Positions 4,377-59,785 of a stretch of DNA of 64,000 nucleotides are shown piece by piece. The notes under the pieces are model-generated. The model was not told the origin of the DNA and did no database searches. It saw nothing but the letters and a program-made list of their open reading frames with translations. The translations under genes and the position numbers were made by a program. This stretch comes from Bacteroidales bacterium (GTDB taxonomy: Bacteria; Bacteroidota; Bacteroidia; Bacteroidales; P3). The stretch is from assembly GCA_017479705.1 (NCBI GenBank), contig JAFVCA010000050.1:3385-67384 (forward strand), in the 5' to 3' direction. Within the stretch, counting starts at the first letter, position 1, and the number at the start of each line of letters is the position of its first letter.

Positions 4377-4390
4377 TTGTATTGCGATTA

Positions 4391-15958: not shown

Positions 15959-15989
15959 TTTTCAATTTTCACCTTTCAATTTTCAATTC
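15959..15989 (+). repeat. Heptamer array (TTTTCAA-type), left flank of the AT-rich island
   Basis: ttttcaattttcacctttcaattttcaattc. It shares tttcaattttcacctttcaattttcaatt with 26529-26565. Confidence 0.9.
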
Positions 15990-17221: not shown

Positions 17222-17229
17222 TAACATGA

Positions 17230-18177: not shown

Positions 18178-18183
18178 TTAATC

Positions 18184-20102: not shown

Positions 20103-20116
20103 ATGAAGAAGTATTT

Positions 20117-22941: not shown

Positions 22942-22955
22942 TAACCGATTGGAGT

Positions 22956-23324: not shown

Positions 23325-23358
23325 TTACGCAAAATGGTGAAGACGATACTGATGTAGT

Positions 23359-25695: not shown

Positions 25696-25774
25696 CTATC
25701 AATATGGAGGCTTTTCCCCTTAGACAATTATTATTAGAGGTGTTTGATGAAACAATTCATAAAGGAACAATCCC

Positions 25775-26457: not shown

Positions 26458-26528
26458 CTAAGACAGCTATACCATTCGGCGTCCCGGAGAGACGCGACTT
26501 TAACACTTCGGTTCCTTGCGGATAATCG

Positions 26529-26565
26529 TTTCAATTTTCAATTTTCACCTTTCAATTTTCAATTG
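26529..26565 (+). repeat. Heptamer array (TTTTCAA-type), right flank of island + vsr
   Basis: tttcaattttcaattttcacctttcaattttcaattg. Confidence 0.9.
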
Positions 26566-28639: not shown

Positions 28640-28661
28640 CACCATCGTTCCGAGCGGAGGA

Positions 28662-28738
28662 ACTCGTTTAGGGGTGCTGCAACTTGTTGTGGCTGAGATT
28701 ACACCCTCGAACCTGATCCGGATAATGCCGGCGGAGGA
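28662..28738 (+). promoter_or_regulatory. TPP (THI-box) riboswitch
   Basis: AGGGGTGC...GGCTGAGATTACACCCTCGAACCTGATCCGGATAATGCCGGCGGAGGAA matches the TPP aptamer consensus (CUGAGA, ACCUGAUCyGGAUAAUGCCrGCG). Confidence 0.9.
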
Positions 28739-28745
28739 AAAGACT

Positions 28746-31001: not shown

Positions 31002-31008
31002 TCAAACT

Positions 31009-31073
31009 GAAAGGTGAAAATTGGAATCAGGTTTGCACACGCATTCCAATTTTCACCTTTCACCTTTCACTTT
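31009..31073. repeat. Inverted pair of heptamer-type repeats (hairpin)
   Basis: gaaaggtgaaaattggaat (31009-31027) and attccaattttcacctttc (31043-31061) are exact reverse complements. They are followed by acctttcacttt. Confidence 0.9.
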
Positions 31074-31088
31074 GCGGAGAACCTCCGC
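31074..31088 (+). repeat. GC hairpin repeat GCGGAGAACCTCCGC
   Basis: Exact copy. Confidence 0.9.
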
Positions 31089-31090
31089 GG

Positions 31091-31141
31091 ATGTTATTCG
31101 TGAATATGTTAATGTGTAAATTCGCTAATATGTTAATGTGT
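31091..31141 (-). repeat. Octamer array (TAACACAT/TCACGAAT family, reverse orientation)
   Basis: atgttattcgtgaatatgttaatgtgtaaattcgctaatatgttaatgtgt. Confidence 0.85.
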
Positions 31142-31780
31142 GCGCCCTTAATTACCTGCGGCGGTGCGCCGTTTTCAATTTTCAATTTTCAATTCTCAGT
31201 TTTCAATATTCTTGAAATCATTGGGGCCGTCATAGGTCTTGCCTACATCATCAGCGAATACCGTGCCGACCGTTTCTTCTGGCCGCTCAGCATCCTCATG
31301 TCGCTCTTCTACATCGTCATCGACTTCACCTCCGGCATCTATGCCAACGGGGCCATCTGCTGCTACAACCTGCTCATGTCCATCTATGGGCTATTAGTGT
31401 GGCGCGGGATTGTGCAGAGCAAAGAGCGCGCCGAGCGTCCCGTGGGCTCCTGCCCCCGGCACTATTGGCCCTTCATCGGGGCCGCTGTGGCTGTGCTCTC
31501 CGTGGTGCTGTGGTGGCTGCTCGGCACCCTTGGCGAGAGCCAGTTCCCCTGGTTAGACGGCATCTCCTCAGCCCTCTCCATCGTGGCCATGTGGATGCTC
31601 TCGCAGAAGTATTGGCAGCAATGGATACTCTGGCTCGTGGTCGAACCCCTCATGATACTCCTGTTCTACATCACCGGCAACTACGCCTCGGCGCTCCTCT
31701 ACGTCGTCTTCGAAGTCTTCTGTGTGCTCGGCATCATCCGCTGGCGTCGCCTCGAGCGGAGAACCTCCGCAGGTGTTTAA
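31091..31780 (+). CDS. PnuC/PnuT family vitamin transporter (likely thiamine, given the riboswitch operon)
   Basis: LEIIGAVIGLAYIISEYRADRFFWPLSILMSLFYIVIDFTSGIYANG is typical of PnuC. All candidate ATGs (31091-31136) lie inside repeats, so the start is uncertain. The C-terminal ERRTSAGV comes from the GC hairpin repeat at 31756-31770. Confidence 0.75.
   Translation: MLFVNMLMCKFANMLMCAPLITCGGAPFSIFNFQFSVFNILEIIGAVIGLAYIISEYRADRFFWPLSILMSLFYIVIDFTSGIYANGAICCYNLLMSIYGLLVWRGIVQSKERAERPVGSCPRHYWPFIGAAVAVLSVVLWWLLGTLGESQFPWLDGISSALSIVAMWMLSQKYWQQWILWLVVEPLMILLFYITGNYASALLYVVFEVFCVLGIIRWRRLERRTSAGV
31142..31208 (+). repeat. GC box (gcgcccttaattacctgcggcggtgcgcc) + heptamer array
   Basis: The same GC box + array combination recurs at 45197-45251 and, reversed, at 39893-39940. 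Confidence 0.85.
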
Positions 31781-33498: not shown

Positions 33499-34119
33499 AT
33501 GGGAATTATAAAAAAACTGTTTTCGCGCTGTAAATCAGCCGACGACATTGATTATAGCATGAAATATCTAATCGCGGGATTGGGCAATGTGGGTGCTGAA
33601 TACGAAGGCACCCGCCACAACGTTGGCTTTATGGTGGTCGACGAGATGGCTCGTAAAGCCGAAGCCCGCTGGAGCCTCGAACGCCGTGCCTACCGCGCCG
33701 AACTCAAAATCAAAGGGCGCACCCTCATACTCATCAAACCCACCACCTACATGAACCTCAGCGGCGAAGCCGTGCGCTACTGGCTGCAGACCGAGAAAGT
33801 GCCGTTGGAGAACCTCCTCGTGGTGGTGGACGACATCGCCCTCCCCCTCGGCACCCTCCGCATGCGCAAACAAGGCAGCGGCGGCGGCCACAACGGCCTC
33901 CGCAACATCGAAGCCCTGCTGGGCCGCAATGACTACTGCCGCCTGCGCATAGGGGTTGGCAACAACTTTGGCCGCGGCGGGCAGATTGACTACGTCCTCG
34001 GCCCCTTCAGCAGCGAAGAGCAAGCCGACCTCGCCCCCACACTCGAGAAAGCCTGTCAGGCCGTCGGCTGCTTCGCCACACAAGGACCCGACCGGGCCAT
34101 GAACCTCTACAACAAATGA
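33499..34119 (+). CDS. pth: Peptidyl-tRNA hydrolase
   Basis: GLGNVGAEYEGTRHNVGF. A TAacTTTG box at 33473-33480 favours the ATG at 33499 (MGIIKKLFS...). The alternative ATG at 33559 (MKYLIAGLGN) is also possible. Confidence 0.85.
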   Translation: MGIIKKLFSRCKSADDIDYSMKYLIAGLGNVGAEYEGTRHNVGFMVVDEMARKAEARWSLERRAYRAELKIKGRTLILIKPTTYMNLSGEAVRYWLQTEKVPLENLLVVVDDIALPLGTLRMRKQGSGGGHNGLRNIEALLGRNDYCRLRIGVGNNFGRGGQIDYVLGPFSSEEQADLAPTLEKACQAVGCFATQGPDRAMNLYNK

Positions 34120-34841
34120 ATCTGACACTCGACATAGGCAACACACGCATCAAGTGGGCACTCTTCGACGGGCCTCGGCTCGCCGACAGCGGAGTCACCG
34201 ACGCCCCCTCCCTTGCAGCCCTTGCCCGTCGCCTGTCTTGGAGCCGAGCCGCCGTCTGTGCCTCCGGCCACGCCGACCTCAGCCCCCTCCTCGCCACCGG
34301 GCGCCCCGTCCACCGCCTCACCGCTGCCTCACCGCTCCCCATCGCCCTCGACTACGCCACCCCCCAAACCCTCGGCCCCGACCGCATTGCCGCAGCCTGT
34401 GGGGCTTGGGCACTCTTCCCCGGCACCGACTGCATCATCATCGACGCCGGCACCTGCATCACAATTGACCACCTCGACGCCACAGGCACCTACCGCGGCG
34501 GGGCAATCCTCCCCGGCATCGAAATGAAATTCCATGCCCTGCATACTTTTACAGCCCGTTTGCCGTTATTGGAACAGATTGACGGCGCTGCCTCCCCCGT
34601 CACGGGCCGCACCACCTCCGAGAGCATCGTTGCCGGTGTCCTCACCGCCACGCGCTTTGCTGTCGAAGGTTTTGTGCAACACTACCGCTCGCGCTGTGCC
34701 ACAGCCCGGGTGCTCCTCACAGGCGGCGATGCCGCGCGCCTCACCGCCGCAGGAGTCTCCGCACTGCAACACGCCGAACGGCTGCCCCACCTCGTCATGA
34801 CAGGGTTGAACAACATACTGACAGAATTAAATATACAATAA
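34116..34841 (+). CDS. coaX: Type III pantothenate kinase
   Basis: 241 aa. MNLTLDIGNTRIKWALF. ATGA overlap with the pth stop. Confidence 0.9.
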   Translation: MNLTLDIGNTRIKWALFDGPRLADSGVTDAPSLAALARRLSWSRAAVCASGHADLSPLLATGRPVHRLTAASPLPIALDYATPQTLGPDRIAAACGAWALFPGTDCIIIDAGTCITIDHLDATGTYRGGAILPGIEMKFHALHTFTARLPLLEQIDGAASPVTGRTTSESIVAGVLTATRFAVEGFVQHYRSRCATARVLLTGGDAARLTAAGVSALQHAERLPHLVMTGLNNILTELNIQ

Positions 34842-34859
34842 AACAGCATATTGAACTAA

Positions 34860-36197
34860 ATGAAAAATAGACACACACTCATCCTCGCCTTGGCCCTCAT
34901 AGCCGCGGCAAGCCCTGTGAGCCTCCGGGCACAGAACGGGTTCAACATCCCCTTCTCCCAATACGGCATCGGCCTCACCGACCAGCCCTACAACATGCCC
35001 ACAGCCTTCGGCATGGGAGGCGCCGTCTACAGCCGCTCCGCGCGCAACACCATCAACCCCTTCAACCCCGCCTCCTACGCCGCCATCGAACCCGAAAGCT
35101 TCGTCTTCGACATCGGCATCAACATCCAGAGCTGCGTGCTCCGCAACGACGTCAACCACCTTACCGACGCCGACGGCAACCTGGCCTACCTTGCCATCGC
35201 CTTCCCCATCACTCGCTGGTGGAAAACATCGGCCGGACTGCTCCCCTACAGCAGCGTCAACTACGAGTCCGTCCAGACCCGCCTTGGCACCTCGTTGGGC
35301 GACGTCCAGACCATCTATGCCGGCAATGGCGGTGTGTCGCAAATCTACTGGGGCAACGGCTTCAACATAGGCTCACGCCTCTCCTTAGGTTTCAATGTCA
35401 ACTTCCTCTACGGCAACATCACACGTGCCATCACATACAAATTCCTTGGCAACGACACCACCTACGCTGTCAACTCCCGCCGCCAGAAGAACACCCTTGT
35501 CCGCAACCTCCTCTTCGACCTTGGCATCCAGTACCGCCAGCCTCTTGGCAGCCGCTACACCCTCCGCCTCGGAGCCACCCTCCGTCTGCCCCGCACCATG
35601 AACGTCAGCGACCAGGCCCTCTCCTACACCCTGTATGGCAGCACCACCAGCGAGTATCTCCTCGACACCATCTTCCCCGCCCGCGGACAGAGCGACACCT
35701 ACACCTCCACCCTCCGCCAGCCCATAGCCGTAGGCCTCGGCCTCGCATTGGAACGCAACGAGCGGTGGGAAATAGACCTTGACGGCTACTACTCGCCCCT
35801 CAGCGGACTGGAATATAGTGAAGACCCCCAATACAACCTCTTTGGCGTCTCAGCTTTGCAAAACGCCCCCAACTACCGTATCGCCCTCGGCGGCGAATGG
35901 AAAGGCAACCCCTCCTCCACCTCCTACTGGGGCCGCATAGGCATCACAGCAGGACTCTATCACAACCGCTCCAAGCTCAACCTCCAGATTAATGGCACCG
36001 CTGATGCCACAGCCATCAACGAGACCGGCTGCGGTCTGGCCTTCAAGCTGCCCATGCGCAAAGGACGCTCGCTCCTCACCCTTGGCATCGGCTACTCCTC
36101 CATCGGCACTGCCGACCTCCTGCGCCGCGATGTCCTCACCTTTGGCATCTCCATCGGCTCCTGCGAGCGCTGGTTCGTCAAGCGCAAATACGATTAA
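34860..36197 (+). CDS. Outer-membrane beta-barrel protein, unknown function
   Basis: 445 aa. Signal peptide (LALALIAAASPVSLRAQ). Alternating beta-strand pattern rich in Gly/Tyr/Asn. Confidence 0.55.
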   Translation: MKNRHTLILALALIAAASPVSLRAQNGFNIPFSQYGIGLTDQPYNMPTAFGMGGAVYSRSARNTINPFNPASYAAIEPESFVFDIGINIQSCVLRNDVNHLTDADGNLAYLAIAFPITRWWKTSAGLLPYSSVNYESVQTRLGTSLGDVQTIYAGNGGVSQIYWGNGFNIGSRLSLGFNVNFLYGNITRAITYKFLGNDTTYAVNSRRQKNTLVRNLLFDLGIQYRQPLGSRYTLRLGATLRLPRTMNVSDQALSYTLYGSTTSEYLLDTIFPARGQSDTYTSTLRQPIAVGLGLALERNERWEIDLDGYYSPLSGLEYSEDPQYNLFGVSALQNAPNYRIALGGEWKGNPSSTSYWGRIGITAGLYHNRSKLNLQINGTADATAINETGCGLAFKLPMRKGRSLLTLGIGYSSIGTADLLRRDVLTFGISIGSCERWFVKRKYD

Positions 36198-36246
36198 GTC
36201 TGCAATAAAACAAGAAAAAACAATACTAATTCACAAAACACCGATT

Positions 36247-36329
36247 AAATTGAAACACGACTCACACATTAACACAATCAAGCATTAACACATTCAAACA
36301 TTCACGAATTAACACATTCAAATAACATT
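36247..36329 (+). repeat. Heptamer remnant + octamer array (intercistronic cassette)
   Basis: aaattgaaacacgactcacacattaacacaatcaagcattaacacattcaaacattcacgaattaacacattcaaataacatt. Confidence 0.85.
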
Positions 36330-36337
36330 TATAAGAG

Positions 36338-37669
36338 ATGAAAACACTGAAAAATGTCCTTATCGTGGCAGCAGCCCTCAGCATCAGCCTGGCCGCTGGC
36401 GCACAGAGCAAATGGGGCGAAACGCCCGAAGACAGCGTTGCCTGCATCAGCAATGTATCCCTCTATCAGGAATTCTACAAGCAGAAAAGCTACACGGACT
36501 GCTACGAGCCGTGGCGCCAAATCCTTCTCCACTGCCCCCGTTTCAGCAAAACCGTCTACCAGCGCGGCTCCACCATCATCAAATCCATGATCAATGTTGC
36601 ACAGACCGCCGCAGAGCGTGATGCCTACATCGACGAACTCATGAAGATGTATGACCAGCGCATCCAGTACTTCGGCGAAGAGGCCAAAGTCAAAGCCATG
36701 AAGGCACAGGACCTCAGTTCGCTCCGCCCCAAGGATGTCAAAGCCATCTATGAGAACTATGCCGACGCCATCCGTGTGGGAGCCCACGAGCTTGACGAGA
36801 ACTACGTCACCCTCTTCTTCAAAGCCACTGTGGACTACGTCCAGGCGGGCCTTGCCGACCCCACGCTCGTTGTCGACAACTACGACATCGCTTCCGACCT
36901 CCTCGACTCGCTCCTCACCCTCAATGTTGAGGCCGACGACAGCGTCAACGCTGCCAAAATCCGCACCTACATCGCCAGCGTCGAGTCCGTCTTCTCGCCA
37001 TACGCCTCCTGCGAGCAGCTGAACGAGATCTATCAGAAGAAATTCGAGGCTGACCCCAACAATATCGCCCTCCTCAAAAAAATCACAGGCATCATGATCA
37101 AGAAGGGCTGCACCGAGGACAACAAACTCTTCTTCGACGCCACCGAGAAGCTCTACGAGCTTGAACCCTCGCCCAGCACCGCCATGCGCATGGGCCAGAT
37201 GTGCTGGAGCAAAAAGCAGTACGGCAAAGCTGTCGAGTATGTGCAGGATGCCCTCAAGAGCCTTACTGACAAGAAAGACCGCTACCGCGCCTACATCATC
37301 CTCGGCCTCTCCTACTCCGGCCAAGGCAGCTACGGCGCAGCCCGCACCGCCTTCCTCAACGCCGCCGAGACCGACCGCACCAAGGGCGAGCCCTACCTGC
37401 AGCTCTCACAGGCCTACGCCAAGAGCAGCCGCACCATCGACGACGGCATGGGTGGACGCTCCGCCTACTGGGTGGCTGTTGACGAGGCTCGTCACGCCAA
37501 GCAAGTTGAACCCACCGAGGAAATCATCAATTTCGCCGACAAACTCATAGGCACCTACTCCGCCTACTTCCCCAAGAAGAACGACGCCTTTATGCTTGAC
37601 CTTATCGACGGCCACAGCTACACCGTCCCCGGATGGATTGGACGCTCCACCATTGTGAGAACCCGCTAA
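36338..37669 (+). CDS. Tetratricopeptide-repeat protein (secreted)
   Basis: 443 aa. Signal peptide, then helical repeat composition (YRAYIILGLSYSGQGSYGAARTAFLNA). Confidence 0.65.
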   Translation: MKTLKNVLIVAAALSISLAAGAQSKWGETPEDSVACISNVSLYQEFYKQKSYTDCYEPWRQILLHCPRFSKTVYQRGSTIIKSMINVAQTAAERDAYIDELMKMYDQRIQYFGEEAKVKAMKAQDLSSLRPKDVKAIYENYADAIRVGAHELDENYVTLFFKATVDYVQAGLADPTLVVDNYDIASDLLDSLLTLNVEADDSVNAAKIRTYIASVESVFSPYASCEQLNEIYQKKFEADPNNIALLKKITGIMIKKGCTEDNKLFFDATEKLYELEPSPSTAMRMGQMCWSKKQYGKAVEYVQDALKSLTDKKDRYRAYIILGLSYSGQGSYGAARTAFLNAAETDRTKGEPYLQLSQAYAKSSRTIDDGMGGRSAYWVAVDEARHAKQVEPTEEIINFADKLIGTYSAYFPKKNDAFMLDLIDGHSYTVPGWIGRSTIVRTR

Positions 37670-37681
37670 CCCCCCTCCGGG

Positions 37682-38254
37682 ATGTATAGAGCAAAACCTT
37701 CTCAGATCATCCTCAAGGCAAGAAGCAGGGCAGCAACCCTGCTTCTTGCCTGTCTCCTGTTGTCCTGTGGAAATGATATTGAGAAGACCCGTATCTTTGA
37801 ACCCCACAACCTGCCCGCCAGCACCATCGTCAACGCCCACATACGCCGCAGCGAGAACGGCAGTCTGCAACTGCTCATGGAAGCCCCCATCGTGCGCCAA
37901 TATGGCGACCCTGAATCCAAGACCGTCTATCCCAAAGGGGTGCGGATGCGCTTCTACGATGGCGAAGACCGCCCTACGGGCATCCTCACCGCCAACTATG
38001 CTGTGCAGTATGACAAACGCCAGATTGTCATGGTACGCGACAGCGTGGTCATCATCGACCTCCAAAACGGCGATACCGTCTATCTCAAAGACCTCATTTG
38101 GCGACAGGCGGAGCACCGCATCTTTAGCAATAATCCGTTGCGGTCCAAGAATGGACCCCGCATCACCCTTGGCGACCGCTTTGAGAGCGACGACGCTTTT
38201 AAGCAGCCCCACATCATTCACCAAAGAGGCACACTGGAATGGAAGGAGGAATGA
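37682..38254 (+). CDS. lptC: LPS export periplasmic protein LptC-like
   Basis: 190 aa. N-terminal anchor/lipobox (LLSCGND). The beta-jellyroll-like repeat pattern and the gene size fit Bacteroidetes LptC. Confidence 0.55.
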   Translation: MYRAKPSQIILKARSRAATLLLACLLLSCGNDIEKTRIFEPHNLPASTIVNAHIRRSENGSLQLLMEAPIVRQYGDPESKTVYPKGVRMRFYDGEDRPTGILTANYAVQYDKRQIVMVRDSVVIIDLQNGDTVYLKDLIWRQAEHRIFSNNPLRSKNGPRITLGDRFESDDAFKQPHIIHQRGTLEWKEE

Positions 38255-38922
38255 CGCGCCGACGCGGCTACCTATGGCTGAGCATAGTGCTGCTGGCCGC
38301 CACGGCAGGGCTTTTAGCCCTGCAGCCCGGAGAGCGGGAAATACCCGCCGACAATAAAGCCGTCAGCCAGTCACGCCAACAAGCGAGCATTCCACCTCCT
38401 TCAGATGCTTTGACAGGCATCCAGTACTCGTCATCACAATCACATTTCGCACGGCACAGTGGTTATGCCAACGCTTCGGGCCAGTATCCCATCAGGAAGA
38501 AAAGTCCGCTTGTGTTCGAGCTGAATGAGGCCGACAGCATGGACCTTGTCCAGCTCTACAACATCGGGCCAACGATGGCTCGTCGCATACTGCGCTACCG
38601 TGCCATGCTGGGAGGCTATTGCAGGTTGGAACAGCTCAAAGAGGTGTACGGGATGGACTCGGCTCGTTATGCCGACATCACACCCCACCTTACCGTCAAT
38701 CCCTCCCTTGTGGTCCAGTTGGACATCAACACTGCAAGCGTTGACCAGCTGAAGCGCCACCCCTATCTTGATTATTACCAGGCTAAGGCCATAGTCCGTC
38801 AGCGCGACGTGTCCGGGTTCTACACCGGGGTGGCCGACCTGTTGAATATACCCATCATTGATAACGAAACCTATAATCTCATAGAACCTTACTTGATATG
38901 CAATTTACAGCCAAACAAATAG
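38239..38922 (+). CDS. ComEA-like helix-hairpin-helix DNA-binding protein
   Basis: 227 aa. N-terminal TM. Two HhH units ([27 protein letters not shown] and [27 protein letters not shown]). Confidence 0.75.
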
Positions 38923-39914
38923 CCCAGAAACTGAAGGGCACGGTGGAGGGCGACGAGAATGCCCTGATATGGAAGCCTTGCCGTATTGAGGAGGTGGACG
39001 AGGGCGGCATCACCTTCCTTGCCAACCCCAAGTATACACACTTTATCTATGAACGCAAGGCCGCAGCAATCCTCATCAGCCGCGACTTTGTGCTGGAGCA
39101 TCCGGTGGACGCCACTTTGATTCGTGTGGATAACCCTTACCTCTGTGTGGCCAAGGTGCTGCACATGTTCAATTCTGCCGACCGTCCCAAGCGTGGCCGC
39201 AGCATGCGCAGCAGCATCGACCGCACGGCACGGCTGGGCAAGGGCTGCTATGTGGGGGCCTTCGCAGTGATAGGCCGCAATGTACGCATTGGCAACAATG
39301 TGCAGATTTATCCGCAGGTGTATATCGGCGACCATTGCCAGATTGGCGACAACACTATCCTGTATCCGGGTGTGAAGATTTACCGCGAGTGCCAGGTGGG
39401 GCAGAACTGCATCCTGCACGCGGGTGTGGTGGTGGGAGCCGACGGCTTCGGTTTCGCCCCCAAGGGGGACGGCTCGTACAGCAAGATTGACCAGATAGGC
39501 AATGTGGTGATTGAGGACGATGTGGAGATTGGGGCCAACACGTGTGTGGACCGCGCGACGATGGGTTCCACCATCATCCACCGCGGAGCCAAGATTGACA
39601 ATCTCTGCCAGATAGCCCACAATGTCTCCTTTGGCAGCAACACGGTGATGGCCTCGCAGTCCGGCTGCGCGGGCAGCGGCAAGGTGGGCAACAACTGCGT
39701 CATTGCCGGCCAGGTGGGCATTGTGGGACATATCAAGGTGGGCGACCGGGTGACGATTGCCGCGCAGTCCGGCGTGACGCGCAATGTGGGCGACGACTCC
39801 ACGGTGCTCGGCTCCCCCGCTATGCCAGCCGACAGGCAGAAGAAAATCTTTGTGCTGCAACGCAAGCTGGAGGAGATGTATAATGACATTCAGAAATTGA
39901 AAAGTGAAAAGTGA
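38898..39914 (+). CDS. lpxD: UDP-3-O-acylglucosamine N-acyltransferase
   Basis: 338 aa. Hexapeptide left-handed beta-helix repeats. N-terminal LpxD domain ([12 protein letters not shown]). The last codons KLKSEK and the stop lie in a heptamer array. Confidence 0.9.
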
Positions 39915-39989
39915 AAGCGGCGCACCGCCGCTGGTAATAAAACTCACACATTAACACATTCAAACATTCCCACATTCACAAACACATTC
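39893..39989 (+). repeat. Composite cassette: heptamer array + reversed GC box + octamer array
   Basis: gaaattgaaaagtgaaaagtgaaa / gcggcgcaccgccgctggtaataa / ctcacacattaacacattcaaacattcccacattcacaaacacattc. It ends at the ATG at 39990. Confidence 0.9.
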
Positions 39990-41420
39990 ATGAAGTCTTG
40001 GAAGGTCTTATTGTTTATGGCTGCTGTGATAGCGTTGCTTGCGGGAGTGTGCTATGTATTCCCGCAGGGGCGTGCCAACATCGGCTCCTTGAATCTCAGG
40101 TTTCCCACACTTGCCAAGGTGCTTAATCCACAGCATGAGTTGGATGTGGAGGCGTATCTGAGGGAGCAGGATTCGTTGGCTTCGTTGCTCGATTCGTTGC
40201 AGGATTCGATGGATTGCTATCAACGGCAGTTGGACAGTAGCGATATTCGTTTCTGGTTCCCGAATGATGATGATTCTTTCTTCGACTCTCTTTTTGCCCA
40301 GTTGGAGCGGACGGCCGCAACGGGTCGCACGATACGCATTGTCCACTATGGCGACTCGCAGATTGAGATGGACCGCATGTCCGATCGGCTGCGGTCGCGC
40401 ATGCAGGAGCGTTTCGGCGGCGGGGGTCCGGGGCTGGTGCCGTTCGCCACGCTTATTGCCTCCTATTCGGTCAGCACCCACGGTGTGGGGGCTTTGGTGC
40501 GGCAGTCGCCGTTCGGTGACAGCTTGGTGGTGCGTGCGGAGGGCAATTACGGCCCCATGGTGCAGGATTTCCATGTGTCAGGGGCGGCGACAAGCACTAT
40601 CAGGGCCACGGCACACAGGAACCGCGACGGCCGTCTGCGGCAGTTGCGGCGGGTGAGGCTGCTGTTCTGCAACCGTCCGGGCCCGTTGGAGGCCACGCTG
40701 ACGGCGGGCTCCTACGCGCAGCAGCAGCGGGAGGAGGCGGAGGGGGTGCACCTGTTCGACTGGCGGTTAGACTCGGCGGCTGCGGAGGTGCGCATTGCCG
40801 TGCAGGGGGCGGCGGACCTCTACGGCGTGATGGTGGACGGCGGTCCCGGCGTGGCGGTGGACAATGTCCCTATGCGGGGCTGTTCGGGTCACCAGTTCAC
40901 CCAAATCAACCGCGACCAGTTGGCCAAGGCTTACAGCCTGATGGATGTGGGGCTGATTATCATGCAGTTTGGCGGCAATTCGGTGCCGTACCTGTCCGGC
41001 GACCGCGCTATTGATGGTTATTGCCGGAGCATGGGGGCGCAGATTGACCGTCTGCACCAGTGCTGCCCCAATGCCCGGATTCTCTTTATCGGCCCGTCGG
41101 ACATGAGCAAGCGCACGGAGGAGGGGGACTTGCGTTCCTACCCCTGGATTCCGAAGGTGGTGGAGGGGCTGCGCAGGGAGGTGTGTGCCCACGGGGCTGC
41201 CTACTGGAGCATCTACCACGCTATGGGGGGTGCCAACGCTATGTCCGCCTGGGTGGAGCAGGGTTTGGGCAGCGGCGATTACGTTCATTTTTCACAGCGG
41301 GGCGCCGACGTGATGGGCGACCGCTTAGCTAATGCTTTCGACAATATGTACAGACTTTACAGGATGCGGCAGCAGACGGCCGCCAAGACAACGGGATTGG
41401 AGGTGGCGGATGCGGAATAG
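39990..41420 (+). CDS. SGNH/GDSL-like hydrolase or acyltransferase (AlgX/PatB-like role possible)
   Basis: 476 aa. N-terminal TM. Block I VHYGDSQIE, block III QFGGNS, block V GDYVHFS. Confidence 0.6.
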   Translation: MKSWKVLLFMAAVIALLAGVCYVFPQGRANIGSLNLRFPTLAKVLNPQHELDVEAYLREQDSLASLLDSLQDSMDCYQRQLDSSDIRFWFPNDDDSFFDSLFAQLERTAATGRTIRIVHYGDSQIEMDRMSDRLRSRMQERFGGGGPGLVPFATLIASYSVSTHGVGALVRQSPFGDSLVVRAEGNYGPMVQDFHVSGAATSTIRATAHRNRDGRLRQLRRVRLLFCNRPGPLEATLTAGSYAQQQREEAEGVHLFDWRLDSAAAEVRIAVQGAADLYGVMVDGGPGVAVDNVPMRGCSGHQFTQINRDQLAKAYSLMDVGLIIMQFGGNSVPYLSGDRAIDGYCRSMGAQIDRLHQCCPNARILFIGPSDMSKRTEEGDLRSYPWIPKVVEGLRREVCAHGAAYWSIYHAMGGANAMSAWVEQGLGSGDYVHFSQRGADVMGDRLANAFDNMYRLYRMRQQTAAKTTGLEVADAE

Positions 41421-42654
41421 GATAATGGCCTTTTTGCTGCTGTCGGCAGCCGTGGGGACAGTCAGCTGCCACGGCCAGAACATTAATTCGCCCGACACGA
41501 AGGGGTACCCTTTTGTGCGCTACGAGAGCAACGAGCTGCGCTACGACAGCACGTCCGCTGCCATGCGCTACCTGCTGAACAAGATGCGGCGGGTGGCCAC
41601 GACGGGGCAGGGGACGGTGAACATTGTGCACATAGGGGGCTCGCATGTGCAGGCCGGCGTGTTCCCCAACCAGGTGCGCGTCCGCATGATGCAGCGGTGG
41701 CCTCAGGCCGTGGGTGGCCGCGGGATGGTTTTCCCCTATTCGGCGGCGGCTAAGTGCAACAATCCCGACGACTACAGGGTGCACTGCAAGGAGAAGGTCG
41801 TCCTGACGCGCAATGTGTACAAGGAGCCCGAATATCCATTGGGACTCTGCGGCATCTCCGTCACGGCCAAGGATGTCCCCACCCGCATACAGATGCTCCT
41901 TACCGACAAGAGCGTCGACTACCGCGTGCAGCACATCGTGGTGCTGGGCTATTCGCCCCAAGGGGTGCTGCCCACACTGGGTTTTGACGGGAACGAGATG
42001 GAGCCCTCATACGTCGACACGGCTACCCACCGCTATGTGTTCAACCTGCTGCAGCCCGTCGACTCTTTCGACATTGTGCTGCCCTGTTCCGAGGGGCAGA
42101 CTTTCACCCTGACGGGTGTCTGTTTAGGCAACCGCCGACCGGGGTTCTCGTATCATTCCATCGGTGTGAACGGTGCTGCGGTGCCGGACTACCTGAAGTG
42201 CAACCTCACCTCCGACCTCCGGCTGCTGCGGCCCGACCTGGTCATCTTCGGCATAGGCATTAACGATGCCCACGAGAAGACTTTCGACACCGTGGTCTTC
42301 AAGAATAATTACCTTGCCCTCTGCGACTCTATCCGCAAGGTCAACCCCAAGTGCGCCTTCATCTTTGTCACCAACAACGACAGCTATCGCAAGACGGGTC
42401 GCCGCCGCTATGCCGTCAACACCAACGGCCCGTTGGCCCGCGATGTGTTCTATCGTCTGGCGGAGCTGACGGGTGGAGCCGTCTGGGACCAGTTTGAGAT
42501 TATGGGTGGTCTCAAATCCATGGAGAAGTGGCAGAAGGCGGGGCTTGCCCAGAAGGACAAAGTCCACTTTACCCGCGCGGGCTACCGCCTAATGGGCGAC
42601 CTCTTCTTCAATGCACTCTACAAGGAACTTTATAAATTGAAAATCGAAAATTGA
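41410..42654 (+). CDS. SGNH-like protein, second copy with degenerate block I
   Basis: Start taken at MRNRIMAFLLL, overlapping the upstream stop. VHIGGSHVQ, FGIGINDAH, DKVHFTRAGY. The C-terminal KLKIEN and the stop lie in a heptamer array. Confidence 0.55.
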   Translation: MRNRIMAFLLLSAAVGTVSCHGQNINSPDTKGYPFVRYESNELRYDSTSAAMRYLLNKMRRVATTGQGTVNIVHIGGSHVQAGVFPNQVRVRMMQRWPQAVGGRGMVFPYSAAAKCNNPDDYRVHCKEKVVLTRNVYKEPEYPLGLCGISVTAKDVPTRIQMLLTDKSVDYRVQHIVVLGYSPQGVLPTLGFDGNEMEPSYVDTATHRYVFNLLQPVDSFDIVLPCSEGQTFTLTGVCLGNRRPGFSYHSIGVNGAAVPDYLKCNLTSDLRLLRPDLVIFGIGINDAHEKTFDTVVFKNNYLALCDSIRKVNPKCAFIFVTNNDSYRKTGRRRYAVNTNGPLARDVFYRLAELTGGAVWDQFEIMGGLKSMEKWQKAGLAQKDKVHFTRAGYRLMGDLFFNALYKELYKLKIEN

Positions 42655-42697
42655 AACACGACTAACACATTCACACATTCACGAATTAACACATTCA
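42634..42697 (+). repeat. Composite cassette: heptamer array + octamer array
   Basis: aaattgaaaatcgaaaattgaaacacgactaacacattcacacattcacgaattaacacattca. Confidence 0.9.
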
Positions 42698-42712
42698 AAA
42701 TAGACTCCCACA

Positions 42713-44584
42713 GTGTCTGACCTCCTCACATACCTCTCCCGACTCTTTGCCTTCGACATGGAACATCCGCTGCTCTTCACTCAGTTCCATTTCTGGGCTT
42801 TCTTCTTCATTGTCTACACTCTCTTTTGCCTCATCGTGTCGGTGGGGCGTCGGGGCAGGGGCATGAGCCGTGGGCGTCGCTTGTGGCGCAACGGCTATCT
42901 TTTTTTGGTGAGCCTCTTTTTCTATTACAAGACCTCCGGGCGGTTCGTGGTGCTGCTGCTTTTTGCCACTGTGGTGGGCTATTTCCTTGGCCTTAGTTTC
43001 GACCGGTTAGCGCGGCGCGAGGAGCAAACGGGCGGCACTAAGCGTCGGCGCCATGCCTTGATGGTGGCGGGCGTGGTGGTGAACCTCGGCGTGCTCTGCT
43101 ACTTCAAGTATGCCTATTTCTTCACGGACATCTTCAACACCATTGCGTCCACCCATTTCTCCATTGCCAATGCCATCGTCCTGCCCGTGGGCATCAGCTT
43201 TTTCACGTTCCAGAACATCAGCTATATCGTCGATGTCTACAAGGGGAGGGTGCGCCATGCGGACAATATTTTAGATTTCGGCTTCTACACCACCTTTTTC
43301 CCGCAGTTGGTGGCGGGTCCCATTGTGCGGGCGGACCAGTTCATTCCGCAGCTCTACAGGCCTTTCTTTCTCTCCCGCCGCCAGTTTGGAATCGCCGTGT
43401 TTTGGATTCTCAACGGCCTGTGCAAAAAACTTATCCTCAGCGACTGGTTGGCCGTCTCCTTTGTGGACCGAGTCTTCGAGAATCCGTTGCTTTACACCTC
43501 GTTCGAGAATTTTGCTGCCCTGTTGCTCTATTCCCTGCAAGTCTATGCCGACTTCTCCGGCTATACGGACATTGCCATCGGTGTGGCCATGCTGATGGGC
43601 TTCTACCTGCCGCTGAACTTCAACTCGCCCTACAAGGCCACCAACGCCGCGGGCTTCTGGAAGCGGTGGCACATCTCCCTCAGCAACTGGCTGAAGGACT
43701 ATCTCTACATCCCCCTTGGCGGCAACCGCAATGCGACGGCGGCCACATGGGTCATCCCCGCCGTGATGCTGACGGTGGTGCTGCTTATGGCCAAGAGCCT
43801 GTGGCTCACCTTGGCGGCGGCCTTTGTGGTGAGCCTGCTGGTGCTCATCTATGCAGCCTTCCCCGAGGGGCGGCGCGATTTCGCCACCAACATGAACAAC
43901 TTCGACACCATGCTGTTGGGCGGCATGTGGCACGGAGCCTCCTTCAACTTCATCACCTGGGGTGCGCTGAACGGCTTGGGCATACTGGTGTACAAGTGGT
44001 GGAAGAAGCGCAGCCCTGTAGGGCGTATTGTGGCGGCGGCGATGGTCTACTTGGCCGTCAAGTGCGCCTACCACCTCTTCCCCGTGCCGGTGCTGAGCAT
44101 GTTCCATTTCGCCTTCCTTGTGGTGGCGGTGGCCATCGTGCTGCTCAACGTTGTTCCGGCCCTGTGGGGCAGCCGCTACCGCCAGTCTGCTTTCAAGGGT
44201 GGTCTGCTGACGGTGTGGAACACTCTGCTCACCTTTGTCTTCATCAGCTTCACCCGCCTGTTCTTCCGTTCGGGCTCCAACCTGGATCCTGCCGAAGCCA
44301 ACGAGACCGCCTGGCGCACCGCCACGCAGATGGTGGAGCGCATCGGAGGGCAGTGGAACTGGGAACAGGTGCCCGCCATAGTAGAGGCCTATGCACCCGT
44401 GTTTATCGTCTTCCTGTTGGGCATGATAATCCACTGGCTGCCCGACCGCCTCAAACGGCGCTACCGCCTGTGGTTTGCAGCCATGCCGCTGTGGCTGATG
44501 GCCCTTGTGGTGGTGGCCACCGTCTTTGTGGTCTACCAGTTCATCACCGCCGACCTCCAGCCCTTCATATACTTTCAGTTCTGA
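42713..44584 (+). CDS. MBOAT family O-acyltransferase (AlgI/DltB/PatA-like)
   Basis: 623 aa (GTG start in the track; the ATG at 42758 is an alternative). FFTFQNISYIVDVYKG, WKRWHISLSNWLKDYLYIPLGGNR, MWHGASFNF. Confidence 0.9.
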   Translation: MSDLLTYLSRLFAFDMEHPLLFTQFHFWAFFFIVYTLFCLIVSVGRRGRGMSRGRRLWRNGYLFLVSLFFYYKTSGRFVVLLLFATVVGYFLGLSFDRLARREEQTGGTKRRRHALMVAGVVVNLGVLCYFKYAYFFTDIFNTIASTHFSIANAIVLPVGISFFTFQNISYIVDVYKGRVRHADNILDFGFYTTFFPQLVAGPIVRADQFIPQLYRPFFLSRRQFGIAVFWILNGLCKKLILSDWLAVSFVDRVFENPLLYTSFENFAALLLYSLQVYADFSGYTDIAIGVAMLMGFYLPLNFNSPYKATNAAGFWKRWHISLSNWLKDYLYIPLGGNRNATAATWVIPAVMLTVVLLMAKSLWLTLAAAFVVSLLVLIYAAFPEGRRDFATNMNNFDTMLLGGMWHGASFNFITWGALNGLGILVYKWWKKRSPVGRIVAAAMVYLAVKCAYHLFPVPVLSMFHFAFLVVAVAIVLLNVVPALWGSRYRQSAFKGGLLTVWNTLLTFVFISFTRLFFRSGSNLDPAEANETAWRTATQMVERIGGQWNWEQVPAIVEAYAPVFIVFLLGMIIHWLPDRLKRRYRLWFAAMPLWLMALVVVATVFVVYQFITADLQPFIYFQF

Positions 44585-44687
44585 GAAAATTAAAAATAAA
44601 AACTGACTAACACATTAACACATTCACGAATTAACACATTCACGAATTGACTAACACATTAACACATTCACGAATTAACACATTCAC
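44585..44687 (+). repeat. Longest octamer array in the window, preceded by an A-rich heptamer-like stretch
   Basis: gaaaattaaaaataaaaactgactaacacattaacacattcacgaattaacacattcacgaattgactaacacattaacacattcacgaattaacacattcac. Confidence 0.9.
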
Positions 44688-45196
44688 CCTCCTCCTCTCC
44701 CTTCTTTGGAATGTGTTGCTGGTCTATCTGCTCTACATGCTGTGCCGGGTGGTATACGTGTGGGAGTTTTGGGACCTCTATGCCGACGGGTGGAGCAACC
44801 TCTCCCTCGGCAACCTCATTGCGGGCGGGCTGCGCTTCGACACCTCCGCCATCCTCTACACCAACACCCTCTACATCCTGCTTGTGCTGCTTCCCCTTCC
44901 GCGCCGTCTCACCGCCTCGCGCCCCTGGCGCATGGCTCTGAAGACACTCTTTGTGGTGGTCAATGCTCTGATGCTCATCCTCAACCTGGTGGACACCGTC
45001 TACTCCCGCTACACCGGGCGGCGCACCACCTGGACCTTCTTCTCCGAGTTCAGCAATGAGGGCAACCTCGGTGACATTGTGGGTGTGGAGCTGCTGAACC
45101 ACTGGTACCTCGTCCTCATCGGGCTTGCCTTCATCGCAGCCCTCATCCTCCTCTACCGCCACCCCCTCACCCCAAGACCGGAATCGGAATCACGCT

Positions 45197-45251
45197 GCGC
45201 CCGTAATCACTACCGGCGGTGCACCCTATTTCAATTTTCAATTTTCAATTT
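45197..45251 (+). repeat. GC box + heptamer array at the LTA-synthase frame break
   Basis: gcgcccgtaatcactaccggcggtgcaccctatttcaattttcaattttcaattt. Compare 31142-31208. Confidence 0.85.
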
Positions 45252-45498
45252 AATAAGTTCCTCGCCCTGCTCGTCTACATCCCCTTAGCCGTTATCGGCA
45301 TGCGCGGGGGAGCCTCCACCGCCATCCGACCCATCACCATCAGCAACGCCAACCAGTACGTCAACCAGCCCTCCGAGGCCGCCATCGTGCTCAACACCCC
45401 CTTCAGCCTGCTGCGCACCATGGGGAAGACCACCTTCGCCGACCCCTGCTACATGCCGGATGCCGAGATGGAAGCCCTCTTCACCCCCCTCCACACCG

Positions 45499-45560
45499 GC
45501 GGAGAACCCCACCAGACAACGACTAACACAATCAAACAATCAAACAATCAAACATTAAAC
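45499..45560 (+). repeat. GC-hairpin-like + octamer-like array, in-frame inside the LTA-synthase linker
   Basis: gcggagaaccccaccagacaacgactaacacaatcaaacaatcaaacaatcaaacattaaac encodes GGEPHQTTTNTIKQSNNQTLN. Confidence 0.75.
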
Positions 45561-46838
45561 ATAGTAGTCCTCATCCTCGAAAGCTTCGGGCAGGAATATA
45601 TCGGAGCCTACAATGACTACCCCGGCTACACCCCCTTCCTCGACTCCCTCATCGCCCACAGCCTCACCTTCCGCCACTCCTACGCCAACGGGCGCAAAAG
45701 CATCGACGGCATGCCCTCCATCCTCTCCGGCATACCCATGTTCGTCGAACCCTTCTTCGTCACCTCCTACTCCCTCAACAACGTCAGCGGCATAGCCGGG
45801 CAGCTGGGCAGCGAAGGCTACACCACCGCCTTCTTCCACGGCGCGGAAAACGGCTCCATGGGCTTCCAAGCCTTTGCCCGCACCACCGGCTTCTCCCACT
45901 ACTACGGCCGCACCGAGTACGAAGCCGACAGCCGCTTTGGCGGCAGTGCCGACTTCGACGGCACATGGGCCATCTGGGACGAAGAGTTCCTCCAATTCTT
46001 CGCTGCCACCATGGAGCAGATGCCCCAACCCTTCATGACTGCCCTCTTCACCGCCACCTCCCACCACCCCTTCGTCGTGCCGGAGCGCTACCGCGACAGC
46101 CTCCACGCCGACGGCCACCCCCTGCACACCTGCATCCGCTACACCGACCACGCCCTGCGCCGCTTCTTTGCCGCCGCACGGCGCATGCCGTGGTATCAGA
46201 ACACCCTCTTCGTCATCACCGCGGACCACACCAACATCAACTCGCAGCCCGCCTACAACACTCCCCTCGGCACCTTCAGCGTCCCCATCATCTTCTACTC
46301 CCCTGCGGGACTGCTGCCCGTCGGCATCTCCGACGCCGTGGCCCAGCAGACCGACATCATGCCCACCCTCCTCGCCCTCACCGGCAGCCGCCGCCCCTAC
46401 ATAGCCTACGGCTGCGACCTCCTCCACACCCCCGACAGCCTCACCTGGGCCATACACTACAACAGCGGCGTATACCAATACGTGCAGAACGGCCGCCTCC
46501 TCCTCTTTGACGGGGAGCAGGCCACCGGCTGGTACGACATCGAGGCCGACCCCGCGCTCCGCAACAACCTCATCGACAGCCACAGCGTGGGCCCCGCCGC
46601 CGCCGACCCCGCCTTCACCCACCACCTTGCGCGCACTAAAGCTATCATCCAGTCCTACATGCAGCGCATGGTAGGCAACCACCTGGTCCCTTAATGCCCC
46701 GCTCCTTACGCCATCCCTCGGTCTCCCTTCGAGGCTCCCTCCCCAACCACCCATTGGAGAACGAAAAGAGAACAGACCTTGAAGGAGCCCCCGTCGGGCG
46801 AAGCAACACCGCATTTGGCACGGAAGTTGAACGCAGCC

Positions 46839-47408
46839 ATGGAAGAAACAACAACGAAACCCCAACACATGGACAAACAACGAATGACATTCGCGGCAGA
46901 CCGCCGCACCGTGACCGAAGGCGACGTAGTGGAACTGACGTGGGACTGCACAGGCAGCGAGCGGACGGAGCTGACCATCGACAATGGCTTCCGCGCCACA
47001 CAGATACCCTTGGAAGCTGTGGGCACGAAACGTTTCCGCCTCAACCGCTCAAAGGGGCGCACACACCTCACCATCGCCGCCACGGTGGAAGGGAAGACCT
47101 ACCGCAAAAAAATAGATGTGCGGGTAAAGAAGATGCCCACCGTCCGCGCCGAGACCATTGACCACCGGGGCCGCAAGGTGGGTGCCGTGGGGCAGTGGTG
47201 GCAGGGCGTGGTGACAAAATGGCATGACCTGCGCACCAAACTCCGCATGGCCATGCAGGCATTGCCGGAACGGAAGCAGATGGCCGTCAAACTGCTGGCC
47301 ATCATCGGGGTGGCAATGATGGTGAGTGCTTTCTGGCCCAAGGCAATGGGCATCGGGCTGATGCTCGTCATGGTCTATTTAGTCGTTGTGCTGATGCGCC
47401 GCAATTGA
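46839..47408 (+). CDS. Hypothetical protein with C-terminal TM anchor
   Basis: ORF 46779-47408. Start uncertain (MEETTT at 46839 or MDKQ at 46869). Beta-rich domain (VVELTWDCTGSERTELTIDNG) and a C-terminal hydrophobic segment. Confidence 0.45.
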   Translation: MEETTTKPQHMDKQRMTFAADRRTVTEGDVVELTWDCTGSERTELTIDNGFRATQIPLEAVGTKRFRLNRSKGRTHLTIAATVEGKTYRKKIDVRVKKMPTVRAETIDHRGRKVGAVGQWWQGVVTKWHDLRTKLRMAMQALPERKQMAVKLLAIIGVAMMVSAFWPKAMGIGLMLVMVYLVVVLMRRN

Positions 47409-47502
47409 AAGGCGATAATCATTGAAAGGTGAAAATTGAAAATTGAAATGTGGCTACCATACTGGCGACCCGTTTCAATTTTCAATTTTCACTTTTCAAT
47501 TT
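47405..47502. repeat. Inverted pair of heptamer arrays between convergent genes
   Basis: attgaaaggtgaaaattgaaaattgaaa (47421-47448) pairs with tttcaattttcaattttcacttttcaattt (47473-47502) across a 24-nt spacer. Both flanking stop codons lie in the arrays. Confidence 0.9.
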
Positions 47503-49535: not shown

Positions 49536-49654
49536 ATAAATCACTTCGGGGAGGTGAGCCTACTCATAACACTTTACAGGCCGAAGGCGCAGAGTGTTGA
49601 CATTCAGAAAAGAGCAAGCGCGTCCCGAAGGGACGCAACAATGAAAACAAATAG
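49536..49654 (+). repeat. ~120-bp leader-like element, copy A (orphan, mini-ORF MKTNS)
   Basis: About three quarters of positions are identical by eye to 59665-59785, including ggggaggtgag, the hairpin gcgtcccgaagggacgc and acaatgaaaacaaatag. Confidence 0.8.
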
Positions 49655-50312: not shown

Positions 50313-50345
50313 GCGGAGAACCTTCGCTGGGCGGAGAACCTCCGC
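50313..50345 (+). repeat. Two tandem GC hairpin repeats in the 5' leader of the 50385 gene
   Basis: gcggagaaccttcgc (50313-50327) and gcggagaacctccgc (50331-50345), downstream of a TAtcTTTG box at 50261-50268. Confidence 0.85.
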
Positions 50346-51530: not shown

Positions 51531-51602
51531 AAATTGAATGTGTTAATTCGTGAATGTGTTAATGTGTTAGTCGATTTGAATGTGTTAATTCGTGAATGTG
51601 TT
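51531..51602 (-). repeat. Octamer array (reverse orientation) in the leader of the HAD gene
   Basis: aaattgaatgtgttaattcgtgaatgtgttaatgtgttagtcgatttgaatgtgttaattcgtgaatgtgtt. Lies downstream of a TAttTTTG box at 51516-51523. Confidence 0.85.
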
Positions 51603-51702
51603 CTGAGGGCAAGCCGAATGGGGGCGAGTAGGCCCGTAGTGGTGAGACGAGGAAATGGCTGTTGGAATTTGACAAACTTTTTTATTAACTAAAAACAGTA
51701 TT

Positions 51703-59668: not shown

Positions 59669-59785
59669 AACACCTTGGGGGAGGTGAGACGACTTATAAC
59701 ACCGTACAAACCGGAGACGCAGTGCGTCGGTATTTAGAAAAAACTAAATGCGTCCCGAAGGAACGCGACAATGAAAACAAATAGA
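59665..59785 (+). repeat. ~120-bp leader-like element, copy B (contains the start codon of the 792-aa ORF)
   Basis: See copy A at 49536-49654. Here the element's acaatgaaaacaaatag continues as the ORF MKTNRRKP... Confidence 0.8.

Follow-up and report, generated by a model that had tools for sequence, protein, structure and literature searches.

Modular heptamer-octamer cassettes at gene boundaries of ruminant-gut Bacteroidales: probable spreading repeats and not obligatory control signals

Composite tandem repeats occupy several gene junctions in a 64,000-nucleotide stretch of DNA from a Bacteroidales bacterium (positions 3,385 to 67,384 of contig JAFVCA010000050.1, assembly GCA_017479705.1; hereafter the window). 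Each of these cassettes joins TTGAAAA-type heptamers to an array of TAACACAT/TCACGAAT-type octamers that runs toward the next start codon, and a preliminary description of four such junctions in the cluster around lpxD had suggested that they could be portable translation-initiation leaders or insulators. Comparison within the window, between strains and with other lineages indicates that the cassettes are probably spreading repeat elements and not required control signals. The fuller reading, in which they are lineage-restricted, non-autonomous, modular and invasive elements whose persistence is filtered by translation, is, in our estimate, about as likely as not. The unit sequences, the ordered heptamer-octamer composite and the host group appear undescribed in the literature searched.

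The four cassettes, at 36.25, 39.9, 42.65 and 44.6 kb, belong to a plus-strand gene cluster (33499-47408) encoding Pth, pantothenate kinase, an uncharacterised protein, a TPR protein, LptC, a ComEA-like protein, LpxD, two GDSL proteins, an MBOAT protein and an LtaS-like protein. Because the sole good Bacteroidetes -7 box of the cluster is found at 33473, the cassettes are probably intercistronic parts of a single mRNA. All four are present as previously placed, on the plus strand and with the same polarity, and their spacers are indeed poor in G (5-11%); the genome had also been called GC-rich, but the window has a GC content of only 53%. The upstream stop codon, said to lie within the heptamer array, does so at two junctions: the TGA of lpxD (39912-39914) is inside a 3.3-unit array in cassette 2, and the TGA of the second GDSL gene (GDSL-2, 42652-42654) is inside the heptamers of cassette 3. 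The claim fails at 36.25 kb, as the stop (36195-36197) stands ~50 nt before a heptamer part of just ~1.5 units (AAATTGAAAC), and likewise at 44.6 kb, where the MBOAT stop TGA (44582-44584) is directly 5′ of a degenerate A-rich run (GAAAATTAAAAATAAAAAC).

Toward the downstream gene, the octamers stop at various distances. Cassette 1 ends 15 nt 5′ of the ATG (36338) of the TPR protein, the six octamers of cassette 2 abut the ATG (39990) of a GDSL protein without a gap, and those of cassette 3 end 12 nt before the GTG start (42713) of the MBOAT protein. The octamer array of cassette 4 is a perfect 2 × 44 nt duplication, and the LtaS-like gene probably starts at a TTG (44647) within it (MTNTLTHSRINTFT...). 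In cassette 2, a GC hairpin box (GCGGCGCACCGCCGC, 39917-39931) followed by the flank TGGTAATAAAAC stands between heptamers and octamers. Cassettes 1 and 3 have TA at both flanks.

Tandem repeats were mapped with TRF (Tandem Repeats Finder), and copies of both orientations in the window were tallied by pattern matching. The preliminary coordinates omit many more copies of these modules, which differ from the four in context and orientation (Table 1). An octamer-pair pattern matches the window 10 times against 0.00 expected and a double heptamer 31 times against 0.6, so that chance is excluded for both repeat types. The modules are the TTGAAAA-type heptamers (H), the octamers (O) with a recurrent head, GACTMAC, and a recurrent tail, ACATTCAAA, and two GC hairpin boxes, G1 (CGGCGCACCGCCG, two copies) and G2 (GCGGAGAACCTCCGC, seven copies, at 26338, 31074, 31756, 33190, 33208, 50313 and 50331), both with the conserved 3′ flank NGGTRTTWAA. 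Head, tail, linker CACGAC and GC-box flanks are common to several copies, and the first three are also found across species. In all four cases where the two adjoin, H precedes O on the same strand; one of these cases runs opposite to the genes, and one comes from another species. The order therefore belongs to the element and not to the neighboring genes. No cassette was matched by Rfam, either in a gathering scan of the window or in an E-value scan restricted to 30.9-47.6 kb, and four related loci gave no Rfam match.

Table 1. Heptamer, octamer and GC-box features of the window (window coordinates; UTR, untranslated region).
Feature	Position	Strand	Basis or details
Cassette 1, 77-nt block	36246-36322	+	AATTGAAAC, CACGAC, eight octamer units ending ACATTCAAA
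Cassette 2	39894-39989	+	heptamers 39894-39916, GC box G1 39917-39931, octamers 39944-39989
Cassette 3	42635-42700	+	heptamers 42634-42657, linker CACGAC, octamers 42663-42700 ending ACATTCAAAA
Cassette 4	44585-44687	+	degenerate A-rich heptamer run, then octamer array 44604-44687
Degenerate GC box (G1-like) and antisense heptamers within the LtaS-like coding sequence	45213-45251	-	strain and orthologue comparison
Octamer variant (ACAATCAA)n with GACTAAC head, in frame in the LtaS-like coding sequence (TTTNTIKQSNNQTLN)	45520-45557	+	TRF, alignment
Octamer array in frame in a 792-aa open reading frame (NTQTLTHSSNNTFT)	61029-61067	+	TRF and pattern
Heptamer array inside vsr	25991-26026	+	part of a 26-aa in-frame insert, residues 73-98
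Reversed mosaic in the gap between TonB receptor gene and pnuC	31008-31211	-	pattern, folding, GC-box matches
Inverted heptamer pair at convergent gene ends	47421-47502	.	hairpin -43 kcal/mol, z -7.1
Inverted octamer pair, rny stop (5343) / lgt start (5254)	5277-5332	-	hairpin -24 kcal/mol, z -5.5
Octamer array antisense to plus-strand gene 51703	51537-51603	-	just 3′ of Bacteroidetes-type -7 box 51516
Antisense-oriented heptamer array, 137 nt 3′ of vsr	26528-26564	-	TRF and pattern
Heptamer array in a divergent intergenic region, ~70 nt upstream of a minus-strand thioesterase gene	15959-15988	-	TRF and pattern
Two tandem G2 boxes (GCGGAGAACCTCCGC, then NGGTATTAA) in the 5′ UTR of gene 50385	50313-50345	+	pattern match

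The cassettes are insertions relative to other lineages. Genome and metagenome loci used for comparison are denoted by L-numbers (L001, L012, etc.). The operon is syntenic in L013, L027, L016 and L018, whose lpxD genes are 78-83% identical in nucleotides to that of the window, and in these four lineages, octamer cassettes are absent at every junction compared and the spacers are shorter. At the TPR-gene junction, the native A-rich leader is conserved on either side of a clean 77-nt insertion when the window is aligned with L013 and L027; the empty site of these two lineages has a single TA, and the filled site has TA on each side. The GDSL-2 and MBOAT genes natively overlap in L027, and the window cassette truncates GDSL-2 and gives it a new stop. 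Similarly, the C-terminus of LpxD at cassette 2 is rewritten in comparison with its homologues. The portability attributed to the cassettes is thus upheld by the clean insertion against two lineages and by the cassette-free junctions of all four relatives.

Related lineages have arrays of other 7-8-mers at similar junctions: GTCGGACN in L016 (7307-7360), TTGAGAA in L018 (15700-15830) and TTGAAAG in L026 (1207-1268). AAAACTA and GCGGAAA/ACTGAGA are other unit types listed among these loci, which also include L009 6020-6100. Formation of repeat arrays at gene boundaries may therefore be a general habit of the group.

The same cassette is found in other species. An exact 23-mer, ACACATTCACGAATTAACACATT, is shared by eight species of rumen Bacteroidales represented by metagenome-assembled genomes (MAGs, 39-58% GC) and by six metagenome contigs. 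In the rumen MAG RUG360 (L012, 58% GC), an octamer cassette is present at four consecutive junctions of the division and cell wall (dcw) cluster (1460-4880, minus strand), which comprises ftsI, murE, mraY (all three Pfam-checked) and the next two genes. A GACTCA head is followed there by the octamer array and then ATG, and the upstream stop is located in a heptamer-like run at three of the four junctions. The same module order occurs in L011 and L009, so that the ordered pattern first described from the window is reproducible across genomes.

The position of the octamers relative to genes was examined in a census of 43 independent arrays from 13 loci, with duplicate contigs merged. Outside the window, genes were called ad hoc by a codon model trained on Pfam-supported genes, with Pfam spot checks. 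[quoted passage not shown] The 17:1 split, in which arrays within one operon are not independent of each other, gives a two-sided binomial p of ~1e-4, and bears out the enrichment upstream of starts that a leader would entail. The arrays with fixed head and tail end 0-36 nt before starts. Furthermore, where a spacer between co-directional genes harbors an inverted pair, the antisense member leads and its sense partner is next to the start (4/4). For example, in the rny-lgt pair, both genes of which are on the minus strand, the sense copy stands 22 nt before the lgt start.

This orientation bias has a counterpart in the sequences themselves. Three units of either the heptamer or the octamer stop all three forward frames. 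In antisense orientation, the heptamers are open in all frames and the octamers offer an ATG or GTG per unit and then a stop. ATG and GTG are absent from the sense strand of the four spacers, whose antisense strands have 3-6 ATG, and the spacers have stops in at least two reading frames (in all three at 36.25 kb and at 44.6 kb). Where a cassette has neither a GC box nor a complementary segment downstream, its folding does not surpass that of shuffled sequences (z +0.75 and +1.06), in agreement with the prediction that sense octamer arrays are unstructured. The inverted pairs are predicted to fold into hairpins, with energies from -24 to -43 kcal/mol and z from -5.5 to -8.2.

In Bacteroidetes, extra AUG codons near starts are avoided and initiation relies on weak structure (PMC6847099, PMC3155529), and A at position -3 is a published feature of initiation (PMC6847099). 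As judged from sequence, the AUG/GUG-free, unstructured sense arrays fit these published rules. A at -3 is not supplied by the cassette: at the starts 36338, 39990 and 42713, this position is G, T and A, respectively. The minimum free energy (MFE) over -40 to +20 of array-preceded starts is -1.8 to -4.4 kcal/mol. These starts are not less structured than those of the other 41 window genes (p=0.42; start 15888 was wrongly counted as array-preceded in this test, its array being ~70 nt upstream), and they are not more accessible than cassette-free orthologous junctions. Folding around the starts and the relatives that run the operon cassette-free thus speak against a required leader role. What survives of the idea of a portable translation-initiation leader is a portable junction compatible with initiation; the need for such a leader is unsupported.

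Insertions are also found in frame inside coding sequences, and the ends of the genes for LpxD, GDSL-2, PnuC and the LtaS-like protein have been rewritten. In the LtaS-like protein, the N-terminus is read from octamers (MTNTLTHSRINTFT), the G1-like box plus antisense heptamers lie in a loop, and the ACAATCAA array lies in a linker; orthologues lack all three. Vsr (25775-26392) has a 26-residue insert relative to Escherichia coli Vsr (1cw0), located between the CFWHGH motif and the next cysteine of the zinc site. G2 encodes the same C-terminal sequence, ...ERRTSAG, at the 3′ ends of the genes for PnuC and Vsr. The vsr gene closes a region (16142-26392) that resembles a defence island, with codon scores weaker than those of the flanking DNA; its products are an AAA_15/AAA_21 ATPase, a SMEK+CTD10 protein (ABC-3C type), DUF2326, a Dcm methylase, a DUF2357 + PD-(D/E)XK protein and Vsr.

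A thiamine pyrophosphate (TPP) riboswitch (28660-28757) is upstream of the genes for a TonB-dependent receptor and a PnuC-family transporter (28725-31780), and the two are split by the reversed mosaic with a terminator-like hairpin. Read on the plus strand, this mosaic consists of a heptamer inverted-pair hairpin (31008-31062), G2 (31074-31088), antisense octamers (31096-31143), G1 (31158-31172) and an antisense heptamer run (31172-31211). The native ATG of pnuC is lost, and the only available start is an ATG from the antisense octamers. Because of the mosaic and this loss, expression of pnuC may be impaired or its N-terminus extended.

Other copies are at gene ends and in leaders. At 47.4 kb, both stops (plus strand, 47406-47408; minus strand, 47482-47484) are within TTGAAA units. 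The octamer array at 51537-51603 is assigned to the 5′ UTR of gene 51703 from its place just after the -7 box.

Strain-level contigs from several samples are the same as the window over ~55 kb, save one TTTCAAT unit at 45228. The contigs identical to the window come from ruminant metagenome projects, and this origin, the TAnnTTTG promoter boxes of Bacteroidetes type and LpxD homologues recorded as 'Bacteroidales bacterium' all point to an uncultured ruminant-gut Bacteroidales as the source of the window. The array concerned (45228-45251) has three units in the window and four in metagenome scaffolds (L001, 16330-16366). In the four-unit allele, the LtaS-like gene is a single open reading frame of 661 aa for a sulfatase-family protein, and in the three-unit allele of the window it is frameshifted into two. 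Contigs with the three-unit allele were sought through the two predicted products, and neither is on record. No differences in unit number are seen at the four junction arrays in L001, L002 and L003, nor where L004, L029 and L030, each covering some of the junctions, extend over them. Length polymorphism of the phase-variation kind, which the preliminary description had proposed to look for in the arrays, is thus absent from the intercistronic arrays among the strain-level contigs. An assembly artefact as the source of the cassettes was ruled out because independent assemblies of several samples contain identical ones. Short-read (Logan) contigs break exactly within the GC box or octamer arrays, as seen at the end of L004 and the starts of L031 and L032 (window 39922 and 51544), so that the repeats fragment assemblies of this organism.

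How such a distribution might have arisen can be outlined as follows. Elements ordered as heptamer array, optional GC hairpin box, GACTMAC head, octamers and ACATTCAAA tail would have entered the spacers between genes, the ends of genes and those protein loops that tolerate insertion, in some Bacteroidales of the ruminant gut. We infer that they are mobilized in trans; after insertion, their arrays may grow or shrink by slippage or duplication, and selection on translation would set the sites at which they persist. A sense intercistronic cassette could serve as a self-contained junction, in which the TGA of the heptamers and the TAA of the octamers would halt any incoming frame and the G-poor, AUG/GUG-free, unstructured octamer run would be tolerated as a leader when the following gene is initiated independently of a Shine-Dalgarno sequence. 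Antisense octamers would expose AUG-UGU-UAA decoys and would, for this reason, be mostly excluded from the positions just before starts. Antisense copies may instead persist beside stops or in inverted pairs, whose strong hairpins probably form transcript ends or act as stabilisers; the elements may also affect translation, termination or RNA stability.

Several observations weigh against this scheme. No candidate for a cognate transposase is present among the scanned window open reading frames, and clear terminal inverted repeats are lacking, cassettes 1 and 3 having at their ends just a 5-bp TTGAA...TTCAA match. The TA on both ends of these cassettes amounts to two cases in AT-rich DNA, and a target-site duplication is therefore not robust. 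The nearest cassette-free relatives have ~82% lpxD identity and are not conspecific, so that gain in the window lineage is favored by parsimony but not proven. The census covers 15 loci (13 as counted above) with ad hoc gene calls, arrays within one operon are not independent, and one organism, L025 (equivalent to L021 and L023), whose arrays are among those placed elsewhere, has only antisense arrays, located between co-directional Fic and Schlafen-type genes. Finally, strict conservation of a 16-mer across genomes of very different GC content could reflect a trans-acting reader. As for a vehicle, searches of viral contigs with two octamer patterns gave 0 matches and hence no sign of a phage.

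Such a reader is the basis of the main rival explanation, in which the cassette is a dedicated cis-element recognized by an RNA-binding factor acting in trans (S1, a cold-shock or KH protein, or a helical-repeat protein) for mRNA processing and/or ribosome loading. The cassettes would then be selected enhancers of translation or processing, as the preliminary description had it. The identity of the 16-mer in genomes of 39-58% GC, the fixed head and tail of arrays ending 0-36 nt before starts, and the tolerance of cassettes in essential operons (the dcw cluster of L012 and the lpxD cluster) all agree with a factor, and a similar role has been proposed for TAACTGA repeats (PMC4679880). On the other hand, the same operon lacks cassettes in related lineages, predicted accessibility is not improved, the distance to the start is variable with no A supplied at -3, copies exist in antisense orientation, in coding sequences and far from any start, and no candidate factor is identified. 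We therefore consider this explanation possible but unlikely. A combined form, a horizontally spreading functional module that is read by a dedicated RNA-binding factor, ends the upstream cistron in any frame, marks processing or protection at GACTMAC and delivers ribosomes without Shine-Dalgarno pairing, seems somewhat less likely again. If true, it would match, in bacteria, the intercistronic sites that proteins define in chloroplast operons, and would be a natural portable junction of Bacteroidales.

The remaining explanations are each improbable. One of them assumes microsatellite-like local slippage, seeded separately at A-rich gene boundaries such as the ELKK codons at the end of lpxD, with neither mobility nor function. 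The native LpxD C-terminus (...ELKK...) does resemble TTGAAAA, the 44-nt duplication and the 7-nt indel show that slippage occurs, and different 7-8-mers stand at the same junctions (GTCGGACN in L016, TTGAGAA in L018, TTGAAAG in L026). However, separate slippage events would not yield the same 16-mer, head, tail, CACGAC and flanks of the GC boxes again at numerous loci and across several species, and the 77-nt block at 36246 arrived as a composite.

Contingency switching, in which unit number toggles the frame or spacer length of cell-envelope genes (phase variation), has comparably poor prospects as a general account. One TTTCAAT unit does switch the LtaS-like gene between the 661-aa reading frame and two fragments in otherwise identical contigs, and with the array at 45228 a gene of the cell envelope may contain a contingency locus. 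The switching array has just three to four units, however, the four intercistronic arrays are invariant in the strain-level contigs from the independent samples examined, and the predicted products of the three-unit allele are on no recorded contig.

Action at the level of DNA or transcription, as promoters, operator arrays or terminators, is equally doubtful: a GC box plus a TTTTCAA run fits the intrinsic-terminator pattern (31158-31182, plus strand; 39932-39916, minus strand), inverted-pair hairpins at convergent gene ends are very stable, and BrickBuilt repeats of Porphyromonas gingivalis have promoter activity (PMC4596501), but no cassette contains a TAnnTTTG -7 box, the octamer arrays alone are unstructured, and the terminator-like polarity opposes the operon in the four sense cassettes, the pattern at 39.9 kb being only on the strand antisense to the operon and cassettes 1, 3 and 4 being without a hairpin. 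Matches to sigma-70 style promoters in the window were dismissed as meaningless for this phylum.

The reading as spreading repeat elements places the cassettes near several known systems. Heptamer repeats are familiar in cyanobacteria as short tandemly repeated repetitive (STRR) sequences. Nostoc has heptamers such as (TTCAAAA)3 upstream of recF, for which reporter data are available (bioRxiv 10.1101/2022.06.06.494920). The cassettes are like STRR and Nostoc heptamers in having similar units in arrays near the starts or promoters of many genes; they differ in phylum, in the octamer partner and ordered cassette that Nostoc lacks, and in that reporter data exist for Nostoc only. A closer likeness is found with the TAACTGA heptamer direct repeats of Beggiatoaceae, cyanobacteria and five Bacteroidetes (MacGregor 2015, PMC4679880). 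Both are short tandem direct repeats at many, mainly intergenic sites, both end in forward orientation a few nt before start codons, and both stop all forward frames and hence overlap only briefly with the ends of upstream open reading frames. Some copies of both are in frame inside open reading frames, in the case of TAACTGA in reverse orientation only, and the antisense heptamers of the cassettes are read through in the LtaS-like gene as the reverse TAACTGA copies are. In both, relatives have shorter spacers that are free of the repeats, the occurrence across the phylogeny is patchy, and involvement in translation has been proposed. Unlike TAACTGA repeats, the cassettes have TTGAAAA and TAACACAT/TCACGAAT units, which are not those of STRR1-3 either, join two repeat types and GC hairpin boxes in one set order and have a defined head and tail, commonly include hairpin-forming inverted pairs, and occur in ruminant-gut Bacteroidales.

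Mosaic and in-frame elements are also relevant. The bacterial interspersed mosaic elements (BIMEs) of enterobacteria combine GC-rich palindromes with other motifs into mosaics at gene ends, and Rickettsia palindromic elements are inserted in frame into protein-coding genes. Like BIMEs, the cassettes include GC-rich imperfect palindromes (two G1 and seven G2 copies), with stems that fold, in mosaics of either orientation, and like the Rickettsia elements they have in-frame copies inside protein-coding genes. Unlike repetitive extragenic palindromic (REP) sequences and BIMEs, their main components are tandem 7-8-mers and not palindromes, and they are not strictly extragenic, as G2 is in the 3′ ends of vsr and pnuC and a G1-like box is in the LtaS-like gene. 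Pneumococcal BOX elements, with the structure boxA-(boxB)n-boxC, have been judged parasitic with side effects on expression (PMC3049150). They share with the cassettes fixed end modules around variable tandem internal units, an interspersed, intergenic and co-transcribed location and the occasional modification of gene ends, but BOX units are 45-59 nt long and strongly structured, whereas the octamer arrays are unstructured and oriented to starts. BrickBuilt, a minisatellite-MITE (miniature inverted-repeat transposable element) of P. gingivalis (PMC4596501), has likewise a Bacteroidales host, a leader, spacer-free tandem units and a tail, and is multi-copy and species-restricted. Its units are 23 nt long with small inverted-repeat ends and promoter activity and are always intergenic; the cassettes have 7-8-nt units, no clear terminal inverted repeats or promoter motif, and copies inside coding sequences. 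The MITE traits present in the cassettes are that they are short, non-coding and multi-copy with a leader and tail around tandem units.

Whatever their origin, the cassettes rewrite the N- and C-termini of proteins and put peptides into enzymes. They also mislead gene callers, as in the lost start of pnuC and the split LtaS-like gene, break short-read assemblies, and are hotspots of frameshifting indels in cell-envelope genes. If the orientation rule reflects constraints of translation, the cassettes are natural experiments on start choice in polycistronic mRNAs of Bacteroidota, a phylum that does without Shine-Dalgarno pairing; in these experiments, sense can be compared with antisense copies and filled junctions with the empty ones of relatives. 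A possible use is as ready-made insulating junctions for the engineering of gut Bacteroidales.

Some other repeats and genes were observed on the way. A further hairpin repeat, GCGTCCCGAAGGGACGC, is found at 49619-49637 and 59749-59766 of the window, and each copy is followed by CAATGAAAACAAATAG, so that the repeat includes the start codon and first codons of an open reading frame; a similar hairpin is present in another species (L005, ~1725-1745). The window also has three consecutive tRNA genes on the minus strand (3211-3512). An intergenic repeat of ~110 nt that looks structured (CCCACACTGCG...GTGTGGGGTTATTRAGATTCA) and has no Rfam match is common to L005 (1730-1850) and L018 (15850-16010).

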